Source of the DNA: a virus
Taxonomy: Duplodnaviria; Caudoviricetes
IMG/VR virus record: IMGVR_UViG_3300043220_000029
Location: 1-43,337 of that record
Strand: one strand, 5' to 3'
DNA length: 43,337 nt
Positions 19,818 to 42,982 of the stretch are shown here, piece by piece. The position numbers and the translations under genes are program-made. The notes below the pieces were generated by a model. The model saw nothing but the letters and a program-made list of their open reading frames with translations, did no database searches and was not told the origin of the DNA. Every line of letters starts with the position of its first letter. Positions within the stretch are counted from its first letter, which is position 1.

Positions 19818-21020
19818 CTACGCGGTGAGCGGGCTTGCGTCGTAGGTTGCGGCGATGGCGTAGTGCTGGTCCAGGATGCCGAACCCGTAGTCGTCTACAA
19901 GGGACATCTGGATCGAGCGGCCGTCATCGGAGTCCTTGACGAAGATTTGGTCGCCTGCGCCATCGTGCGGGAACGGGATAAATGCGATGGCGTCTCGGTG
20001 GCCGATGATGCCAACGGTGTCATCTGACCCGTTCTTGGCGAAGTTGGAGTTGCCGAACAGTTGCACGCCCCCGACCTTGCCAACATTGGCGTCCGCGATT
20101 GCCTGGGCACCGATACCGGCTGGTGCGGCAGTAACGGATGTTGTGGCAACGGTGCCGATGATAGCGCCACCTGCCAGGGAACGCATGACGGCCCCCAGCG
20201 ATTCCCAGCGGAACGCGCCCCAGATTTGGCCCTTCGGCGTCTGGTTGCTGACCGTGCCAGCAGAAATCGCGACGGTGGCGATATTGTCTCCGCTTCTGAG
20301 GGTGGTGAAGCCACCGAGGAGCGTGCCCGGCGTCAGAAGGTCGCCGGCTGAACCCTGCGTGTGCGTGGTAAAGCTGGCAGCCAGGCCACCAATGTCAGCA
20401 TCGATCTTCCGCTCGCGCGCGTCTCGCATGATGCGGCCCGAGCGGAGCGCCATGTTCTCCGTCCACTGCGCCAGTGACTTCTTGGTAAACTTGACCGCGA
20501 GGCCAACTTCGCCGGGAACGATCACGACGTTCGAGGTGGAGAGCTTCTGAAAGTTGGTGATGTCCTCACCTTGCGTCAGCCCCTCTGAGTTCAGGTGGCC
20601 GAGCTTCGGGGAGTTCCAGGACGTACCCATGCCCTGCTGAAGGTTGTCGTTGAATACGAGGGAGCGCAGCGAGCCAACCTCCTGGGTCGTCTCCCGCGCC
20701 TTCGCGATTGTGAGCTTCAGAAGGTTGCCAGGTACAGTTGGCCTGGTCGCCTCCGTAAACGTTCCTGTCTGCATCACGCCCAGTTCAGAATTCAGCAGGC
20801 GTAGCGCGTATGATGCGGCGACCGCCTTGGTCAGTGCTACGAAGGCAATCTGGCGTTGGATCATCCATGCCCGAACTGCGATCCGAAGCTTGCCGAAGTC
20901 GATCAGCCTCCGTCGATCAGCCCTCGATAGAAAGCTGAACGCCTGACGGTCAACGTAAGCAAACATCGCAGCAAAGCCAACGACGAACGATACGAGAACC
21001 AATTGTAACGTGCGAATCAT
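19818..21020 (-). CDS. Major capsid protein (HK97 fold, inferred) with ~81-aa N-terminal leader
   Basis: Follows the scaffold gene; SPKLGHL.S.GLTQGED, RERKIDADI and C-terminal DDYGFGILD patterns; AAGGAG RBS supports the 21020 start. Confidence 0.75.
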   Translation of the reverse strand: MIRTLQLVLVSFVVGFAAMFAYVDRQAFSFLSRADRRRLIDFGKLRIAVRAWMIQRQIAFVALTKAVAASYALRLLNSELGVMQTGTFTEATRPTVPGNLLKLTIAKARETTQEVGSLRSLVFNDNLQQGMGTSWNSPKLGHLNSEGLTQGEDITNFQKLSTSNVVIVPGEVGLAVKFTKKSLAQWTENMALRSGRIMRDARERKIDADIGGLAASFTTHTQGSAGDLLTPGTLLGGFTTLRSGDNIATVAISAGTVSNQTPKGQIWGAFRWESLGAVMRSLAGGAIIGTVATTSVTAAPAGIGAQAIADANVGKVGGVQLFGNSNFAKNGSDDTVGIIGHRDAIAFIPFPHDGAGDQIFVKDSDDGRSIQMSLVDDYGFGILDQHYAIAATYDASPLTA

Positions 21021-33341: not shown

Positions 33342-33405
33342 GTCAAAGCCTCCTTCGCGGGCCGGTGCCCAGTATATCGTAGATCGTTACTTACGCCCCT
33401 CTGGA

Positions 33406-33488
33406 TCTGTCTCTGTATCTGTCTCTGTATCTGGGGGCGTTACAGAAACGTTACTGTAACGTTACGTCGCCGTTTCAGAAACGTTACT
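33406..33488. repeat. Candidate replication origin (iteron-like repeats)
   Basis: CGTT(A/T)CAGAAACGTTACT at 33438 and 33471; palindrome GTAACGTTAC 33456-33465; 12-bp tandem repeat 33406-33433; AT-richer than the flanks. Confidence 0.5.
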
Positions 33489-33809
33489 TGTCCGTTTACG
33501 AAACGCCCGTACTCTGTTACTAGAATGGTCGCTTTTGTATTGGCGCTTGTCCCAATTGTGCGCCCTCCAACCCTGACGCGTCTTATCGAACAGGCGGCGA
33601 GCGACAAGTTGAGAGAGGATGAGTTGGAGCCGAGATATGCTCACTCGCATTAGTTCAGACGCATCGTTAATGTCAATCAACCAACCGTCATCGTCCGTGA
33701 GACAGAGCAGTAGGACCCAGTGCTTGAAGAGGGCCGGGGGCAACTGGCGAACCTTCGCCTTGGTCGCCGCATTGCGGTAAAAGCGGAACCACTCATGTGC
33801 GTCGCCCAT
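33462..33809 (-). CDS. Replisome organizer / replication initiator N-terminal-like protein
   Basis: WFRFY...WVLLLCL...HNWDKRQYKSD.S..RVRAFRKR pattern; TGATG coupling. Confidence 0.7.
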   Translation of the reverse strand: MGDAHEWFRFYRNAATKAKVRQLPPALFKHWVLLLCLTDDDGWLIDINDASELMRVSISRLQLILSQLVARRLFDKTRQGWRAHNWDKRQYKSDHSSNRVRAFRKRTSNVSETAT

Positions 33810-34024
33810 CAGATCTCCTTGCTTCCCCGCGCGCTCTCCTGCCCCAGCCTGAACATCAGTTGCGCCGTGGTCCGGTAGCCGGCACGTATCCTGACGACGT
33901 GCAGGCGTGAGCCGACGGCCTTCTTCGATATGCCAAGTGCGGCGCCTACCTCGTCGTGGTTCTTCCCCTGCGCCAACTGAGCGACGAGCCGGAGCTCGTG
34001 ATCGGTCAGGTGGAGGTAGCTCAT
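33809..34024 (-). CDS. LuxR/GerE-type HTH regulator
   Basis: LTDHELRLVAQLAQGKNHDEVGAALGISKKAV matches the LuxR HTH consensus. Confidence 0.85.
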   Translation of the reverse strand: MSYLHLTDHELRLVAQLAQGKNHDEVGAALGISKKAVGSRLHVVRIRAGYRTTAQLMFRLGQESARGSKEI

Positions 34025-34039
34025 CGCTACGCTTCACTT

Positions 34040-34352
34040 CTCGGCGTCAGTTCACGGCACGGCACATCAAACCAAACCAGTACTCGTCGTCAGATCAAGC
34101 CAACTCACCGCAATCCTCGCCGTCAGCTCACAGCACCGCATGCCATATCAATCCTCGCCGTCACTCCATATCAGCGCACGCCATTGCTCGGCGTCATAGC
34201 ACGTCACCCCAAGACACGTCACAGCTCGGCGTCACTCCACGCCACATCGCCGCAGCTCAGCCCACCACAATCCTCGTGCCAAGCCACATCACCACACTTC
34301 AGCCCATCCCTCGCCGTCATGGCATATCACCTCAGTGCAAGTCTCGCCGTCT
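34040..34352 (-). repeat. Hierarchical non-coding array: 9 anchors TGACGNCGAG separated by NNN+(TGNNN)4-7
   Basis: Plus-strand anchors CTCGNCGTCA at 34040, 34083, 34116, 34154, 34187, 34225, 34273 (degenerate, 9 nt), 34310 and 34343; spacers 33, 23, 28, 23, 28, 38, 28 and 23 nt. Confidence 0.92.
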
Positions 34353-34358
34353 TGTCGC

Positions 34359-34589
34359 TCACCGCGCCACCTCGAACCGATGTTCGAACACCAGCGTGTC
34401 GGCGTCGGCGCCCAGCCCCAGATCGACGCAGAGCTCGTAGCGGGCGAGGATGGCCCGGTCCAGTGCCCTGCGGCCACCATCCGTGATCTTGTCGCGGTAG
34501 CGTGCGTTCTGCCGCAAGGCGTGGGCGAGCGACGCGACGATCTGCGGACCATCGACTGGGGCGTCATAACTCAGCCAGCGCACCGTCAC
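34359..34589 (-). CDS. Hypothetical protein immediately upstream of the array
   Basis: GTGA coupling to the VRR-NUC gene; stop lies 6 nt before the first anchor. Confidence 0.55.
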   Translation of the reverse strand: MTVRWLSYDAPVDGPQIVASLAHALRQNARYRDKITDGGRRALDRAILARYELCVDLGLGADADTLVFEHRFEVAR

Positions 34590-34897
34590 CGCAACGTCTC
34601 CTCGATCTCCGGCCAGTCGCTCGGCCTAAGTATCCCTGCCTCAACGACGCGCACCTGGATCAGCCGCACAATGTAGTCTTGCTGCTCCGGACTCACGCGG
34701 CCCTTCTCCGACTTGAGCTCCCAGAGCAGGAGCCTGTGGCCCCGCACCAGCGCCAGGTCCGGCCAGCCAGGGTTGGAGCGCCGCGAGTCGTGGGTGTGAT
34801 AAACCATCCAGCCCAGCAGCTCAGCGTAGGCAATCACCTGCGCCTGAAAGTCGCGCTCGCTCATCGCCGCGTCGAGGACCTGGCGGGCTGTGGTCAT
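34586..34897 (-). CDS. VRR-NUC domain nuclease (Holliday-junction resolvase-like)
   Basis: SERDFQ, GWPDL and ELKSEKGRVSPEQ motifs. Confidence 0.85.
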   Translation of the reverse strand: MTTARQVLDAAMSERDFQAQVIAYAELLGWMVYHTHDSRRSNPGWPDLALVRGHRLLLWELKSEKGRVSPEQQDYIVRLIQVRVVEAGILRPSDWPEIEETLR

Positions 34898-35403: not shown

Positions 35404-35627
35404 GCCCCCTCCATTCTCGGACTCCATGCGTGCTTGAGGCCGCAGTGGTTACAGGTATGTGCCACGCCGCTCCGAGCGTCGCGCCGCCACAACAGGTAGC
35501 GGCAGCGCCTTCGCCCACAGCACCGCTGCTTCGCACGCACTGGCCGGTAGTACCGTCCGCATATAGGGCAGCGCGGTAAAAGCGTTGCTGCGCTTCTCCG
35601 TGGCTTCCTAGCGGGCATCGTCACCAC
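35400..35627 (-). CDS. Small Cys-rich zinc-finger protein
   Basis: CPIC, CCGRRRC and CNHC motifs. Confidence 0.5.
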   Translation of the reverse strand: MVTMPARKPRRSAATLLPRCPICGRYYRPVRAKQRCCGRRRCRYLLWRRDARSGVAHTCNHCGLKHAWSPRMEGA

Positions 35628-36436
35628 AACGCCTCCTGGCCCTCCTGGGGCTGCGCGGGGACGAGGGGCAGCGGCATCACCGCCTGCGCCATGCGCTTAG
35701 CGGCGATCTCGCAGTAGCGTTCCTCGATCTCGATGCCGATGGCCCTACGGCCGAGATCCTTGGCTGCGCGGAGCGTCGTGCCGGAGCCCATGAAGGGATC
35801 GAGGATAAGGTCGCCAGGGTTGCTGTGAATCTGCATCCAATGGGACACGACCTCGAGGGGCTTCTGTGTTGGGTGCCTACGCTTCTCGTTCGTGTTCTGG
35901 CATCGCCAACCCGAAACAATCGGAGCAGCAACCGTGTTCTTGGTTGCACCGCTGGCGTTGAATGTCCAGCTCCCACCCTTCGTCTGCCACACCGCCATCT
36001 CAACTGACCGCTGGTAGAGCCCACGAAAATTAGGGGCGGGGTTAGCCTTTAGCCAATACAGTAAGCAGCGATGATCAAGGCCGGACTGCAGATAAGCTGC
36101 GAGAAGGAACTCCGAAGTGAAGGCGATTAGGGAGCCGCCATCGCAGAGCAGACGTCGCGTCTCCGAGAGCAACGGCGTTGCATCCCAGTCATAGTCCCAT
36201 TCACCGAAGTCTCTCTTGATTTCGCGGTAGCTCTCTGAACCGTCAGCCCGCGCTCCTGTGATGACATGCTTTCGCTTCACCCGGCCAATCGTCGTGTTGC
36301 CGCGACCATTGCGAGCACTCACGTTGTATGGGGGGTCGGTCAGCACCAAGTCCACGGGCTCTGTGAGCTGCAGCAGCACCTCGCGGCAGTCGCCGTGGTA
36401 GATCATCACCGCCTCATCCTCGTAGTAGGGCTTCAC
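35621..36436 (-). CDS. N6-adenine/N4-cytosine DNA methyltransferase (beta class)
   Basis: TDPPY precedes HPTQKP and DPFMGSGTT; GTG start coupled to the upstream stop. Confidence 0.92.
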   Translation of the reverse strand: MKPYYEDEAVMIYHGDCREVLLQLTEPVDLVLTDPPYNVSARNGRGNTTIGRVKRKHVITGARADGSESYREIKRDFGEWDYDWDATPLLSETRRLLCDGGSLIAFTSEFLLAAYLQSGLDHRCLLYWLKANPAPNFRGLYQRSVEMAVWQTKGGSWTFNASGATKNTVAAPIVSGWRCQNTNEKRRHPTQKPLEVVSHWMQIHSNPGDLILDPFMGSGTTLRAAKDLGRRAIGIEIEERYCEIAAKRMAQAVMPLPLVPAQPQEGQEALW

Positions 36437-36942
36437 TGTTGCCTCCACACCACGACCGCCGAGGGGAATGGCGCAGGCCCCGTGGCTCCACCGAACTTGA
36501 GGCGGCCAGGCAGGAAGTGAAGCTCCGCTAGTCGCGGGTGAGCGTGCAGCATCCCCGCGCCAGCCCACCCCCTCACGATGTATCTCTGCCAGACCTTGGT
36601 ATCGGTGCGCGAAGGGATGAGCGCCACTACCAACTCCGCGTTGCCACACTCCACCTCACTCACCGCCTTGTCGATCCACTTGGGCATCTCGCGGCCATAG
36701 GGCGGGTTCATGTAGACCTTCCCGTACCAGGGCTGAAGCAACCCGTCCATCGCCTCGGTCGAGCCGTCGTAGAAGCCGCCGCCCTTGTGGGCGATGCGCC
36801 AGGCCGTGTAGTGGTGCTCTCGCTGTCCACAGGGGTCAAGGTCGAACGGCCCGAACTCATCCCAGAGCCGGTCGAACAGGTCCTTCGGCGTCTGCCAGTC
36901 CGTGCTCTGAGCCTGTAGCATATAGCCTCGCTCAGCCATCAC
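36433..36942 (-). CDS. Phage DNA N6-adenine methyltransferase (phage Dam-like family)
   Basis: DWQTP, FDLDPC, MNPPYG, RTDT and GRLKFG...APFPS motifs. Confidence 0.9.
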   Translation of the reverse strand: MMAERGYMLQAQSTDWQTPKDLFDRLWDEFGPFDLDPCGQREHHYTAWRIAHKGGGFYDGSTEAMDGLLQPWYGKVYMNPPYGREMPKWIDKAVSEVECGNAELVVALIPSRTDTKVWQRYIVRGWAGAGMLHAHPRLAELHFLPGRLKFGGATGPAPFPSAVVVWRQQ

Positions 36943-37199
36943 GACGACCTCGCATCCACGCCCGGCACCGGCGCCAGCTCAACCTTCTTTCGCGGGCAGT
37001 GACGCTCGCAGTGCTGCGCCTCGATGCGGCCGTACTCTTCAGGCTGTTCGGTCATCAGCCGCCGGCAGCGAATACAGGAGAGCATGAAGCAGGCGGAACA
37101 CCTCGGCCTGGGCCGGAGCTCGCCTCGCTTCCGGGCAGCGGCAACTCGCCGGCGGTGAGCGGCAACGGTCTGTTTAGCCATCCCACTCATCATCCTCAA
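36939..37199 (-). CDS. Hypothetical Cys-rich protein
   Basis: CSAC..SCIRC...HCERHC. Confidence 0.5.
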   Translation of the reverse strand: MRMMSGMAKQTVAAHRRRVAAARKRGELRPRPRCSACFMLSCIRCRRLMTEQPEEYGRIEAQHCERHCPRKKVELAPVPGVDARSS

Positions 37200-37419
37200 A
37201 GGGCCGGGGCCCCGCCTTTGTTACGGTTGGCGCAGGCTGACAGCAGCCCCTCAATTCAAGCCCCCGCTTCATGCCGGCGTCGAAGATATGGCGGAGCTGC
37301 TGTCGCAGATCGCCGACTGGCAGAACGGCATGGATGATCCGACGCTCGCCTCCTGGCAAGGAGTTAAGCATCGCCTGAAACGCCGCGTCGTCTTCCTCTT
37401 GGCCTATCGTCTTAGCCAC
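37174..37419 (-). CDS. Hypothetical protein
   Basis: Overlaps the MTase end; GGAGG upstream. Confidence 0.5.
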   Translation of the reverse strand: MAKTIGQEEDDAAFQAMLNSLPGGERRIIHAVLPVGDLRQQLRHIFDAGMKRGLELRGCCQPAPTVTKAGPRPFEDDEWDG

Positions 37420-38470
37420 GCCGTCCCTCCATGATCAGCCGCCCGACGTGCTCCGCGACCTGGGGGACGACTGCATTGCCGAGTCCTCTAAGTCGGTCCA
37501 CCCGAGCGGGAACCCCATGAGCCACTCGACCCACGTCGGGTTCAACTGCCCACCAATCTGCGTCCGTAGGTTGTCCCCGCCATCCCTGCCCGAAGAGCCG
37601 GGACCACCCATCCCATCGCTCTGCGTCGGCGTCGGCCATCGCTTCACCGCTTGGCTCAAGTCCACCTGGCGCTTCTTGCCGTCCGGCGTCATCCCCGTCC
37701 GCGTCGTGCCCTCCGGTAGCGTGCGGCCGACGCTGGGAAGGCTTGGTGTCGGCCACATATCCGGCCTCTGCCTGGCTGCCTCCACTGCTTGCGTCAGATA
37801 GTAGCTGTGATGGCTCCCCGTCAGAAGGTTCTTGACCTTGGCGCTGTCCGGTCCCGCACCCGGCATCTGGGCCGCTGGCGTGGGCCACGATGAAGACCCG
37901 ATCGCGGATGTGCGGGGCGCCGAGGGCTGCTGCTGGTATATGATCCCATTCCGCATCGTAGCCGCTCTCGGCCAGGTTCCTGAGCACTCCTCCAAAGAGC
38001 CGTCCAGCGTCGATTGATAGTAGCCCTGGTACGTTCTCAACCAGGACCCATCGGGGCCTAACCTCGCGTATGATTCTGTGGAACTCCGGCCAGAGCCAGC
38101 GATCGTCTTCGGCACCCAGTCGCCGGCCAGCGTGGGAGACGGGCTGGCAGGGGAAGCCGCCGCAGATGAGGTCGACGGGCGCGAGCGTTTCACCGCGTTG
38201 TGCAGTGTCTCGCCCCTGTGTTGTCCCAGCCAACTCGATCCGCTGGCCCTGAACCCCTGATCGTTGTCGTTGGCTCTCGGCGTCGGCCACCGCTGTTCCG
38301 TGACAGTCTCGTACATCGCCGTATCGAACAGCGTTGGGGAAGTGTCGGGTGAGGACTCGTCTACACCACTCATCGACCTCTACCTGCCAGACGATCTCCA
38401 TGCCAGCGCGTTCCAGCCCCAGGTCCATGCCGCCGATGCCAGAGAACAGCGAGCCGACGCGCATCGTCAT
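37412..38470 (-). CDS. C5-cytosine DNA methyltransferase, main polypeptide
   Basis: Motif I LFSGIGG, IV GGFPCQ, VI ENV, VIII PHIRDRVFIVA and X LGNAVVP. Confidence 0.93.
   Translation of the reverse strand: MTMRVGSLFSGIGGMDLGLERAGMEIVWQVEVDEWCRRVLTRHFPNAVRYGDVRDCHGTAVADAESQRQRSGVQGQRIELAGTTQGRDTAQRGETLAPVDLICGGFPCQPVSHAGRRLGAEDDRWLWPEFHRIIREVRPRWVLVENVPGLLSIDAGRLFGGVLRNLAESGYDAEWDHIPAAALGAPHIRDRVFIVAHASGPDAGCGTGQRQGQEPSDGEPSQLLSDASSGGSQAEAGYVADTKPSQRRPHATGGHDADGDDAGRQEAPGGLEPSGEAMADADAERWDGWSRLFGQGWRGQPTDADWWAVEPDVGRVAHGVPARVDRLRGLGNAVVPQVAEHVGRLIMEGRRG
37435..38373 (-). CDS. Nested alternative-frame polypeptide of the C5-MTase (WPTP repeats plus motif IX-like segment); start uncertain
   Basis: Four WPTP repeats and LNPTWVEWLMGFPLGWT; the main frame lacks a recognisable motif IX. 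Confidence 0.7.
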   Translation of the reverse strand: MSGVDESSPDTSPTLFDTAMYETVTEQRWPTPRANDNDQGFRASGSSWLGQHRGETLHNAVKRSRPSTSSAAASPASPSPTLAGDWVPKTIAGSGRSSTESYARLGPDGSWLRTYQGYYQSTLDGSLEECSGTWPRAATMRNGIIYQQQPSAPRTSAIGSSSWPTPAAQMPGAGPDSAKVKNLLTGSHHSYYLTQAVEAARQRPDMWPTPSLPSVGRTLPEGTTRTGMTPDGKKRQVDLSQAVKRWPTPTQSDGMGGPGSSGRDGGDNLRTQIGGQLNPTWVEWLMGFPLGWTDLEDSAMQSSPRSRSTSGG

Positions 38471-41865: not shown

Positions 41866-42596
41866 GGCATCACTCCTCTGTACCAGCAGCCGAGGTAGTT
41901 GCCGTCCTCGTCTTGGAGGCCGCCCCAGCCCCCGGACCCGCCGGGGTGCTCGATGGCGTTGGCCCACCAAGCGACGTTCGCACCGACGTGGTACGGGTTT
42001 CGTGGATCGTTGAGCTTTGTATTTCCCACAGCCCTTCGCCAGGAATCGACATGAAACTGCGCTCGTGAGACGTATCCGTTTGCGTAGTATCCGTCCCACT
42101 CCGAAGATTCACAAGGAAGGACATCCTCGATGAAGTGCCGGAGCCATGCTGGGTTGCCGTCATAGTCTAGGTAGCCCTCCGCGAACTGTTGCCAGTCGGC
42201 TCCGAGGAGCGAGCGCCATTCTTCTTGCGGCAAATCGTACAGCTCTGCATCCAGTGGGCGTTGATGTTCATCGCCCACTCTGGGTTGTGGAATGTCCCGC
42301 CCCAGTTGTCCGGTCGAACGTGCAGGCCCAGCCTCGTGATGATCCATTGCCTTCGGCGCCACCCGCGCAGCCACCGCCAGGCCAAGCAGCTCGCGGCGAG
42401 GATCAGCAGCGCTAGGCGGAGCAGCATCTAGCGACCGTGGCCCTGGCACCAATTGGGACAGCGACTCCCGTGCGCCCACTCGGCAAGACGCCTCATACCG
42501 TGATAGTAAGCCCACACATACAGCTTCTCTCGCATCATTCCCTCCCATCGTCGCCATCGCCCCCAGCAGCAGCGCCCCCAGGAGCCAGCGGCCTAT
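41862..42596 (-). CDS. Lysozyme-like transglycosylase (Rpf/SLT-like) with hydrophobic N-terminus; possible ATA start
   Basis: VLPCESS...RAQFHVDSW...DP.NP...GW...CW; frame is open upstream to an ATA with AGGAGG RBS. Confidence 0.55.
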   Translation of the reverse strand: MGRWLLGALLLGAMATMGGNDAREAVCVGLLSRYEASCRVGARESLSQLVPGPRSLDAAPPSAADPRRELLGLAVAARVAPKAMDHHEAGPARSTGQLGRDIPQPRVGDEHQRPLDAELYDLPQEEWRSLLGADWQQFAEGYLDYDGNPAWLRHFIEDVLPCESSEWDGYYANGYVSRAQFHVDSWRRAVGNTKLNDPRNPYHVGANVAWWANAIEHPGGSGGWGGLQDEDGNYLGCWYRGVMP

Positions 42597-42982
42597 ACGC
42601 GAGCCTCCTGCGGCTCATAGACCCATTGCCGTGCAATCTCACATAGCGCGACAAACACAGCGTCCTTGTCGCGCTCCAGTTGCCCTAGATCGGCGTATGG
42701 CACAAGGTCGGGGTGAATCTTAGCCTCTCGGTCGTACACCTCTCCGTACTGCCAGCCCATGCCGAGATATGCCTGCATCCAGCTTCCATGCAGCTCTTCA
42801 GGGGATCGTGAACGGTGCCCCCCACACTGGCGCTCGATCACATCTAGGAACTGCTCACGGAACGCCGGTTCTCGCTCCTGCCACGGCACGGGTATGATTG
42901 GAGCCCTCGCCGCTATTGCTGCTAGGCGTGCAGCGTTGTATACGAACTCGGCGCGGCGTTCCATCAATTCACTCATCGTCAT
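42593..42982 (-). CDS. RyR-domain-like protein
   Basis: SPEELHGSWM...GWQYG..YD...K.HPDLVPY.DL...ER.KD matches the RyR repeat pattern; AAGGAGG RBS. Confidence 0.75.
   Translation of the reverse strand: MTMSELMERRAEFVYNAARLAAIAARAPIIPVPWQEREPAFREQFLDVIERQCGGHRSRSPEELHGSWMQAYLGMGWQYGEVYDREAKIHPDLVPYADLGQLERDKDAVFVALCEIARQWVYEPQEARV

Follow-up and report, generated by a model that had tools for sequence, protein, structure and literature searches.

An anchor-punctuated pentamer array in the genome of a tailed phage

The window is the whole of a 43,337-nucleotide virus record (IMG/VR IMGVR_UViG_3300043220_000029; Caudoviricetes) with direct terminal repeats. CheckV estimates its completeness at 68%, the terminal repeats notwithstanding; because close relatives of its capsid protein sit on contigs of 42.5 to 44.1 kb, we took the record as complete. 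Near-identical capsid proteins are present on contigs of 18.7 and 43.7 kb, and searches of IMG/VR with two proteins as queries found no close relatives of the phage.

The array under study occupies the gap between a 76-amino-acid (aa) gene of unknown product and an HTH gene, alongside methyltransferase, VRR-NUC, and replication genes that all run in one direction (Table 1). The frame of the replication-initiation-like gene stops at 33462, before the 312 positions of the family profile are complete, and short tandem repeats with periods of 6, 11, and 22, possibly origin iterons, lie past it (33400 to 33505). Elsewhere in the window, three consecutive DNA methyltransferase genes (N6/N4, Dam-like, and C5) occupy positions 35621 to 38470, a second long ORF overlaps the C5 gene in a different frame (37435 to 38373), and a 129-aa gene with a RyR domain (Pfam PF02026) is found at 42593 to 42982. 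Two sets of 301 genomes were compared for distant homologues of the capsid protein (~35% identity): 16 genomes carried one in the set belonging to the phylum of a Dehalococcoidia MAG, and none did in the set belonging to that of an Actinomycetota MAG. The host is possibly an uncultured member of the Chloroflexota, a weak assignment. In each of the 16 Chloroflexota-phylum genomes, the conserved ~35% homologue (L214-L223) is single copy and may represent a domesticated or gene-transfer-agent-like capsid.

On the minus strand (34352 to 34040), nine anchors are placed at 34352, 34319, 34281, 34234, 34196, 34163, 34125, 34092, and 34049. Two are irregular: the anchor at 34352 has A as its first base, and that at 34281 is degenerate and 9 nt long. 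Each of the first eight anchors is followed by 3 nt and then by 4, 5, 7, 5, 4, 5, 4, and 6 pentamers, respectively; 39 of the 40 pentamers start with TG and one with CG, and all eight spacers are different. These anchors, pentamer counts, TG starts, and distinct spacers, all listed in a preliminary description made from the sequence, were re-found at the same positions. Unit length follows 5n+13, giving units of 33 to 48 nt with 10-nt anchors, and guides have 5 to 8 triplets, equivalent to 10 to 16 paired letters.

We counted 38 TG-TG pairs at a 5-nt distance, whereas 2,000 dinucleotide shuffles averaged 9.1 such pairs and reached 18 at most. The anchor-plus-pentamer motif matched the window eight times, every time inside the array. 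Furthermore, a contig of sequencing run X1, a possible source of the window DNA, spans the array at a depth of ~149 with zero differences, so an assembly artifact is unlikely. Together, these results confirm that the array is a real feature. We found no sigma-70-like promoter or terminator at the array borders, no Rfam match to the array (CRISPR models included), and no stable RNA fold or long structured tail (folding z 0.0).

Table 1. Features of the array locus and candidate target sites in the window
Feature	Positions	Strand	Remarks
Replication-initiation-like gene	33462..33803	minus	Downstream of array; phrog_3926
LuxR/sigma-like HTH gene	33809..34024	minus	Begins right after array; Pfam match below cut-off
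Predicted orphan vrRNA array, anchor-punctuated pentamers	34032..34352	minus	9 anchors, 8 full units, then an incomplete one
Unit 1	34320..34352	minus	Anchor + 5 triplets
Unit 2	34282..34319	minus	Anchor + 6 triplets
Unit 3	34235..34281	minus	Degenerate 9-nt anchor + 8 triplets, one CG pentamer; chance-level target matches
Unit 4	34197..34234	minus	Anchor + 6 triplets; own capsid gene match 11/12, sense, wobble-phased
Unit 5	34164..34196	minus	Anchor + 5 triplets; 10/10 match near 35436, off wobble phase of annotated gene, chance-compatible
Unit 6	34126..34163	minus	Anchor + 6 triplets
Unit 7	34093..34125	minus	Anchor + 5 triplets; own capsid gene match 10/10, antisense, wobble-phased
Unit 8	34050..34092	minus	Anchor + 7 triplets; target scans chance-compatible
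76-aa gene, product unknown	34359..34589	minus	Site of RAMP or small partner in relatives; resembles neither
VRR-NUC nuclease gene	34586..34897	minus	Upstream of array, same co-directional gene run
Unit 4 site in own major-capsid-like gene	20319..20336	minus	Lead only
Unit 7 site in own major-capsid-like gene	20440..20454	plus	Lead only

Related arrays adjoin a RAMP gene that the window lacks

A first pattern scan of IMG/VR yielded 35 loci, 28 of them with a G-loop protein of 210 to 260 aa immediately upstream, and three wider scans, the last over 19 of 64 parts, brought the collection to at least 205 sequences, the window included. The array grammar belongs to a widespread phage family, with at least 184 loci that contain two or more clean units and at least 1,244 distinct units. 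In 100 of 100 family arrays, every frame of the transcribed strand, described earlier as unlikely to code for protein, is closed.

These loci form at least 131 groups without common units, and the RAMP gene is present in 95 of them among the matches listed. The search for co-occurring genes covered independent arrays with at least 1.5 kb of flank on both sides: among the matches listed, a stand-alone RAMP gene adjoins 36 of 37, the sole exception being the window. The vipr/RAMP gene that a complete VIPR locus contains was found beside 36 of the 36 other well-flanked arrays among these matches and is missing from the window. Here, two family HMMs, SUSP1 Vipr, and the G-loop motif detected no RAMP gene, in line with the preliminary description, in which none was recognized, and a partner HMM detected no small partner gene. 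Several other RAMP-less arrays (L026/L066, L056, L071, L123, L147, and L156) were rejected as orphans because they end near contig edges. In L026/L066, a sigma-70-like promoter (by eye) and a small CxxC-CxxC ORF precede the array, in the place of the RAMP gene, and the contig stops just after.

The linked protein has a RAMP fold with a G-loop and lies outside CRISPR loci. Its PADLOC RAMP matches were weak, and scans of family members against Pfam, PHROG, and PDB sequences gave no meaningful match. One member was modeled with AlphaFold2 (pLDDT 81), and the model resembles Cas7-type chains of type VII and Csm complexes (best E 3.7e-8, TM 0.56); as modeled, the linked RAMP protein folds like Cas7. 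Its alignment with SUSP1 Vipr is weak (18% identity over 127 columns, E 0.006, HH probability 6%), and a profile search of SUSP1 with the family RAMP did not recover Vipr. In this weak alignment of the G-loop, SUSP1 D177, which reads G1, faces G/A, and W178, which stacks on G2, faces E.

Very large arrays occur at loci L090, L124, L125, and L154, where ~47 to 57 clean units, their anchors of the TGAAG type, are split into several blocks about the RAMP gene. Many units of L003, L004, and L030 have a one-base insertion (a 6-nt step) mid-unit, after which the 5-nt rhythm resumes. In a tree of 75 RAMP proteins, anchor type appears to follow the protein clade, with TGAAG/TGATG-type anchors in the GQERSQ/GAERSQ G-loop group and TGNCG-type anchors in the GGERG/AGERG group. 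A distant RAMP homologue (24% identity, profile E 9e-17) is encoded by the cultured Microcystis phage Mae-JY09 (PP395641.1; L230, 2150 to 2600). The C-rich stretch that follows it seems by eye to have a period of 5, and this phage may be a relative open to experiment with a different scaffold.

Family guides follow the VIPR decoding rule

We applied nine decoding rules to 407 guides of at least seven triplets, with the arrays masked, across 885 kb of flanking DNA. Only one rule clearly exceeded its shuffles: reading the first two letters after TG and skipping one base gave 13 matches, against 3, 2, and 3. Letters 2 and 3 with the same skip gave 8 matches (5, 9, and 6 in shuffles), letters 1 and 3 gave 7 (4, 2, and 2) and were not clearly enriched, and a fully contiguous three-letter reading showed no enrichment in 74 guides. 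Among 688 de-duplicated guides, 15 had a match, against 1 to 8 in each of eight shuffles, and the skip fell on the wobble position in 14 of the 15 real matches versus 14 of 35 shuffle matches. The matches lie on both strands and hit the vipr-like G-loop and other parts of such genes in other phages, as well as the methyltransferase DPPY motif. Together, these results show that family guides follow the VIPR rule, in which two letters after TG are read and one wobble base is skipped, on either strand. Only ~2% of family guides had any match in the searched DNA. Across the family, guides matched their own flanks no more often than shuffles did (5 versus 6.8 of 544), and a test for stop-codon depletion was weak (65 versus 79.7, standard deviation 7.3).

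The guide-type code proposed in the preliminary description thus stands in a refined form: the two letters next to TG carry the target information, one target base is skipped, and the last letter of the triplet contributes in part. When variable bases were searched for targets against shuffles, the gapped reading succeeded for the family, but the contiguous reading and the window's own guides did not. The suspected resemblance to Vipr phage arrays also proved sound, as both the decoding rule and the RAMP neighbor in relatives make the array VIPR related. Of the three options left open at that stage, variant and orphan both apply, since the RAMP gene of the relatives is absent here, and a new system is not supported. 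We conclude that the window carries an orphan array of a divergent, anchor-punctuated VIPR clade.

In four RAMP-bearing loci, L061 (an array in a 6-kb contig), L084, L102, and L200, guides spell the vipr-like G-loop or thumb of other phages. Guides of L084 also spell its own vipr-like gene. We read these four loci as family-internal warfare.

The third letter tracks the skipped base

Across the family, the third letter of the triplet is G rich (39 to 47%). We compared it with the skipped target base in matches picked on the first two letters alone, counting all 15, chance-looking ones included. It equaled the skipped base at 46 of 108 sites (31.8 expected). At ambiguous codons, where the wobble base decides the amino acid, the third letter was right at 45 of 54 sites, against 24.9 expected (p 2e-8), and four shuffles gave 26 of 54 (25.5 expected) in the same test. 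With one guide removed from each of two near-duplicate pairs, the count was 37 of 45. For 15 hand-picked guides, the purine/pyrimidine class in non-self targets agreed at 42 of 48 split-box sites and was at chance at four-fold sites (22.8 of 45). Altogether, our results show that the third letter tracks the purine/pyrimidine class of the skipped target base, and the earlier statement that the triplet varies freely no longer holds. In three self-matching guides, none of 11 four-fold sites agreed in class, a small and post hoc count to which the window's matches to its own capsid gene do not conform.

Composition was also analyzed independently of targets. Where both readings are four-fold (1,211 sites), the third letter was G in 46% of cases; at the 1,632 split-box sites G made up 34%, with C steady at 19%. 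This asymmetry in G is a better, though not decisive, fit to selection on the third letter than to plain copying. Substitutions between 18 related guide pairs were too few for a test of class conservation.

We tentatively propose, as a possibility that falls somewhat short of even, that the clade reads the base that canonical VIPR skips: the UG would be flipped out, two letters would pair strictly, and the third would check the wobble class. Each repeat would then carry ~1 bit more, making guides of 5 to 8 repeats specific enough, and the published gapped code would change. A phage could target a gene that it shares, its own four-fold wobble bases having been switched to the other class, which would provide self/non-self discrimination without a PAM. 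An RNA-only phage like this one would put that code to use through a borrowed protein. Alternatively, guides would be full copies of target sequence, interrupted by a UG after each third base. The third letter, if not read, would be a footprint of templated guide acquisition and the first clue to how VIPR acquires its guides. In the available texts of the VIPR literature, figures and data files aside, we found no information assigned to the third letter and no mechanism of guide acquisition.

Search for targets of the window's guides

None of the window's eight guides had a target that passed a control. Exact scans of IMG/VR gave 9 chance-compatible matches for unit 3 and 4 matches for unit 8, 3 of which were wobble-phased in unrelated genes, about the chance number. 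One match of unit 3, in a terminase gene, was wobble-phased, with only 2 of 8 third letters alike. Neither 204 RAMP proteins nor 64 non-self capsid homologues matched the window guides better than shuffles. In 401 Dehalococcoidia-class genomes, units 3 and 8 had no multicopy sites and matched 1 and 2 genomes, respectively, versus 0 and 3 for reversed controls.

Sites for units 4 and 7 were found in the phage's own major-capsid-like gene (Table 1), and the best site of unit 8 in this gene (10/14) abuts that of unit 4. Two guides fell in one gene in only 2 of 300 shuffles, with thresholds set post hoc. Genome-wide, top-gene sum tests of the own-capsid signal gave p values of 0.55 and 0.75, and contigs of four sequencing runs contained no variant of the capsid site nearer to the guides. 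The capsid gene of a related phage may be the best target candidate for the window guides, and we treat this sequence match as a lead only.

Proposed mechanism and rival explanations

We consider it probable that the array is an orphan set of eight guide-type units of a divergent VIPR family. Its transcription is likely, as is loading of its units onto the Cas7-like protein of a co-infecting phage, which they would steer to silence conserved rival genes. Because relatives keep the array beside a Cas7-like protein that is absent here, the window phage likely borrows the protein of a rival. The array would be transcribed by read-through from the upstream genes, and its RNA would be cut or loaded at the TG-NNG-YCGAG anchors. 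A co-infecting phage would supply the RAMP protein in trans, with one borrowed protomer per pentamer, and gapped pairing to double-stranded DNA would then lead to repression of the rival's gene, as in SUSP1. Several observations speak against this explanation. The guides are short, with 5 to 8 triplets versus 9 to 16 repeats in print, and one anchor is damaged, consistent with decay. The target scans of the window's guides stayed at chance level, few family guides match anything in the searched DNA, and the array borders lack a recognizable promoter or terminator. The 68% completeness estimate and the weak similarity to SUSP1 Vipr count against it too.

In falling order, the rivals are a relic, a sponge, DNA binding sites, and a plus-strand protein. 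A genuine family array may have outlived its lost RAMP gene and be non-functional now, which we regard as unlikely. The missing partner gene, the damaged anchor together with another whose first base is changed, and the failure of the scans to find guide targets would all fit such a relic. However, TG starts in 39 of 40 pentamers and all eight unit lengths are intact, leaving the array as clean as those adjoining a RAMP gene; moreover, vipr-deleted relatives of SUSP1 retain targeting guides, according to the available part of that report (10.64898/2026.10.15.759431).

A little less likely again is a decoy or sponge RNA, whose units would bind the RAMP protein of an incoming phage, protecting without a real target, or would divert it to harmless sites. 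Eight different guides would be unneeded by a pure sponge, and guides 3 and 8 lack multicopy sites in the 401 Dehalococcoidia-class genomes, a comparison that depends on a weak host assignment. Nevertheless, short guides for which no target was found are what such an RNA might look like, and the accessible text on SUSP1 satellites describes redirection to host decoys (10.64898/2026.10.15.759431).

The preliminary description also offered a DNA-level role, with protein-binding sites phased by half turns near the replication genes. The array does lie just upstream of the HTH and replication-initiation-like genes, but the arrays of relatives travel with an RNA-binding-type RAMP fold and not with these genes, and in codon phase the variable letters read as conserved motifs from other genes. 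We find this role very improbable, and the decoding result largely refutes it. Least credible of all is a plus-strand protein encoded by ORFs 33907-34440 or 33956-34486: two stop-free plus-strand frames do cross the array, but they have no Pfam match, 94 of 100 family arrays have one or more open antisense frames as a side effect of their composition, and unit lengths of 5n+13 break the reading frame.

The kind of system is already known, because VIPR, orphan guides, and non-GGY repeats appear in 2026 preprints. What is new here is a decoded clade in a multiplexed repeat-spacer format, with 10-nt anchors and 33- to 48-nt units, that resembles an intermediate between VIPR and CRISPR arrays. The recording of the skipped base by the third letter is a family-level result and more interesting than the window copy itself. 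The window itself contributes a natural example, likely from outside the enterobacteria, of a phage that uses the code without a protein of its own.

Comparison with known systems

In published VIPR logic, each repeat has two informative letters and one target base, on the wobble position, is skipped (10.64898/2026.04.26.720920). In SUSP1, per the available text, the Vipr protein holds all three scaffold bases and the skipped target base is unpaired (10.64898/2026.04.26.720927). As far as the accessible portions of these reports go (10.64898/2026.04.26.720920,.720927), the family described here shares with the type II VIPR of Escherichia phage SUSP1 a stand-alone RAMP gene with a small partner in relatives, the 5-nt period, the two informative letters, the wobble skip, and the targeting of rival phage genes on both strands. 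It differs in its scaffold, which is (n)UG versus GGY, with the third letter and TG replacing GGY. The counterpart of G1 varies here and tracks the skipped base. Family guides have ~5 to 9 repeats with a 10-nt anchor between them and no long structured tail, and the family RAMP protein is only ~18% identical. The canonical vrRNA is built on GGY/NN, with 9 to 16 repeats and a structured 3' tail, and the window array differs on all three counts.

Class 1 CRISPR arrays with Cas7/Csm3 are alike in their repeat-spacer layout and RAMP fold. In contrast to them, the spacers here do not copy targets contiguously, we recognized neither cas1/cas2 nor an effector operon, and Rfam gave no CRISPR match.

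Non-canonical VIPR repeats have been named NNNGG, YNNNG, NNNNG, and "staggered" arrays (10.64898/2026.04.26.720920, methods and legends of fig. S17-S18), and the portion available of a further report lists GAC/NN, CAC/NN, WGT/NN, and TGH/NN clusters (10.64898/2026.10.21.760802). From what these sources give, the likeness lies in a period of 5 and a relaxed scaffold beside Vipr-like folds, whereas the register here is TG-NN-n and not TGH-NN. The clade may already be in published figures or data, because NNNTG fits NNNNG and CAC/NN is the reverse complement of the commonest GTG/NN; the available texts, figures and data files aside, contain no CGAG anchor and no decoded targets for non-canonical repeats. 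Staggered vrRNA arrays, compared by legend only, have a 1-nt guide overlap, whereas here the register shifts by 3 and units are 5n+13.

Finally, orphan (solo) vrRNAs occur in SUSP1-family phages and satellites, and those of SUSP1 relatives target rival vipr genes (10.64898/2026.10.15.759431). Judging from the part of that report available, the likeness is twofold: a guide array is carried by a phage without vipr, and family guides here match rival vipr-like genes in wobble phase. Those orphans are GGY/NN guides of Enterobacteriaceae phages, whereas the window array belongs to another clade, comes from a phage with an uncultured, possibly Chloroflexota, host, and consists of eight short anchored units.
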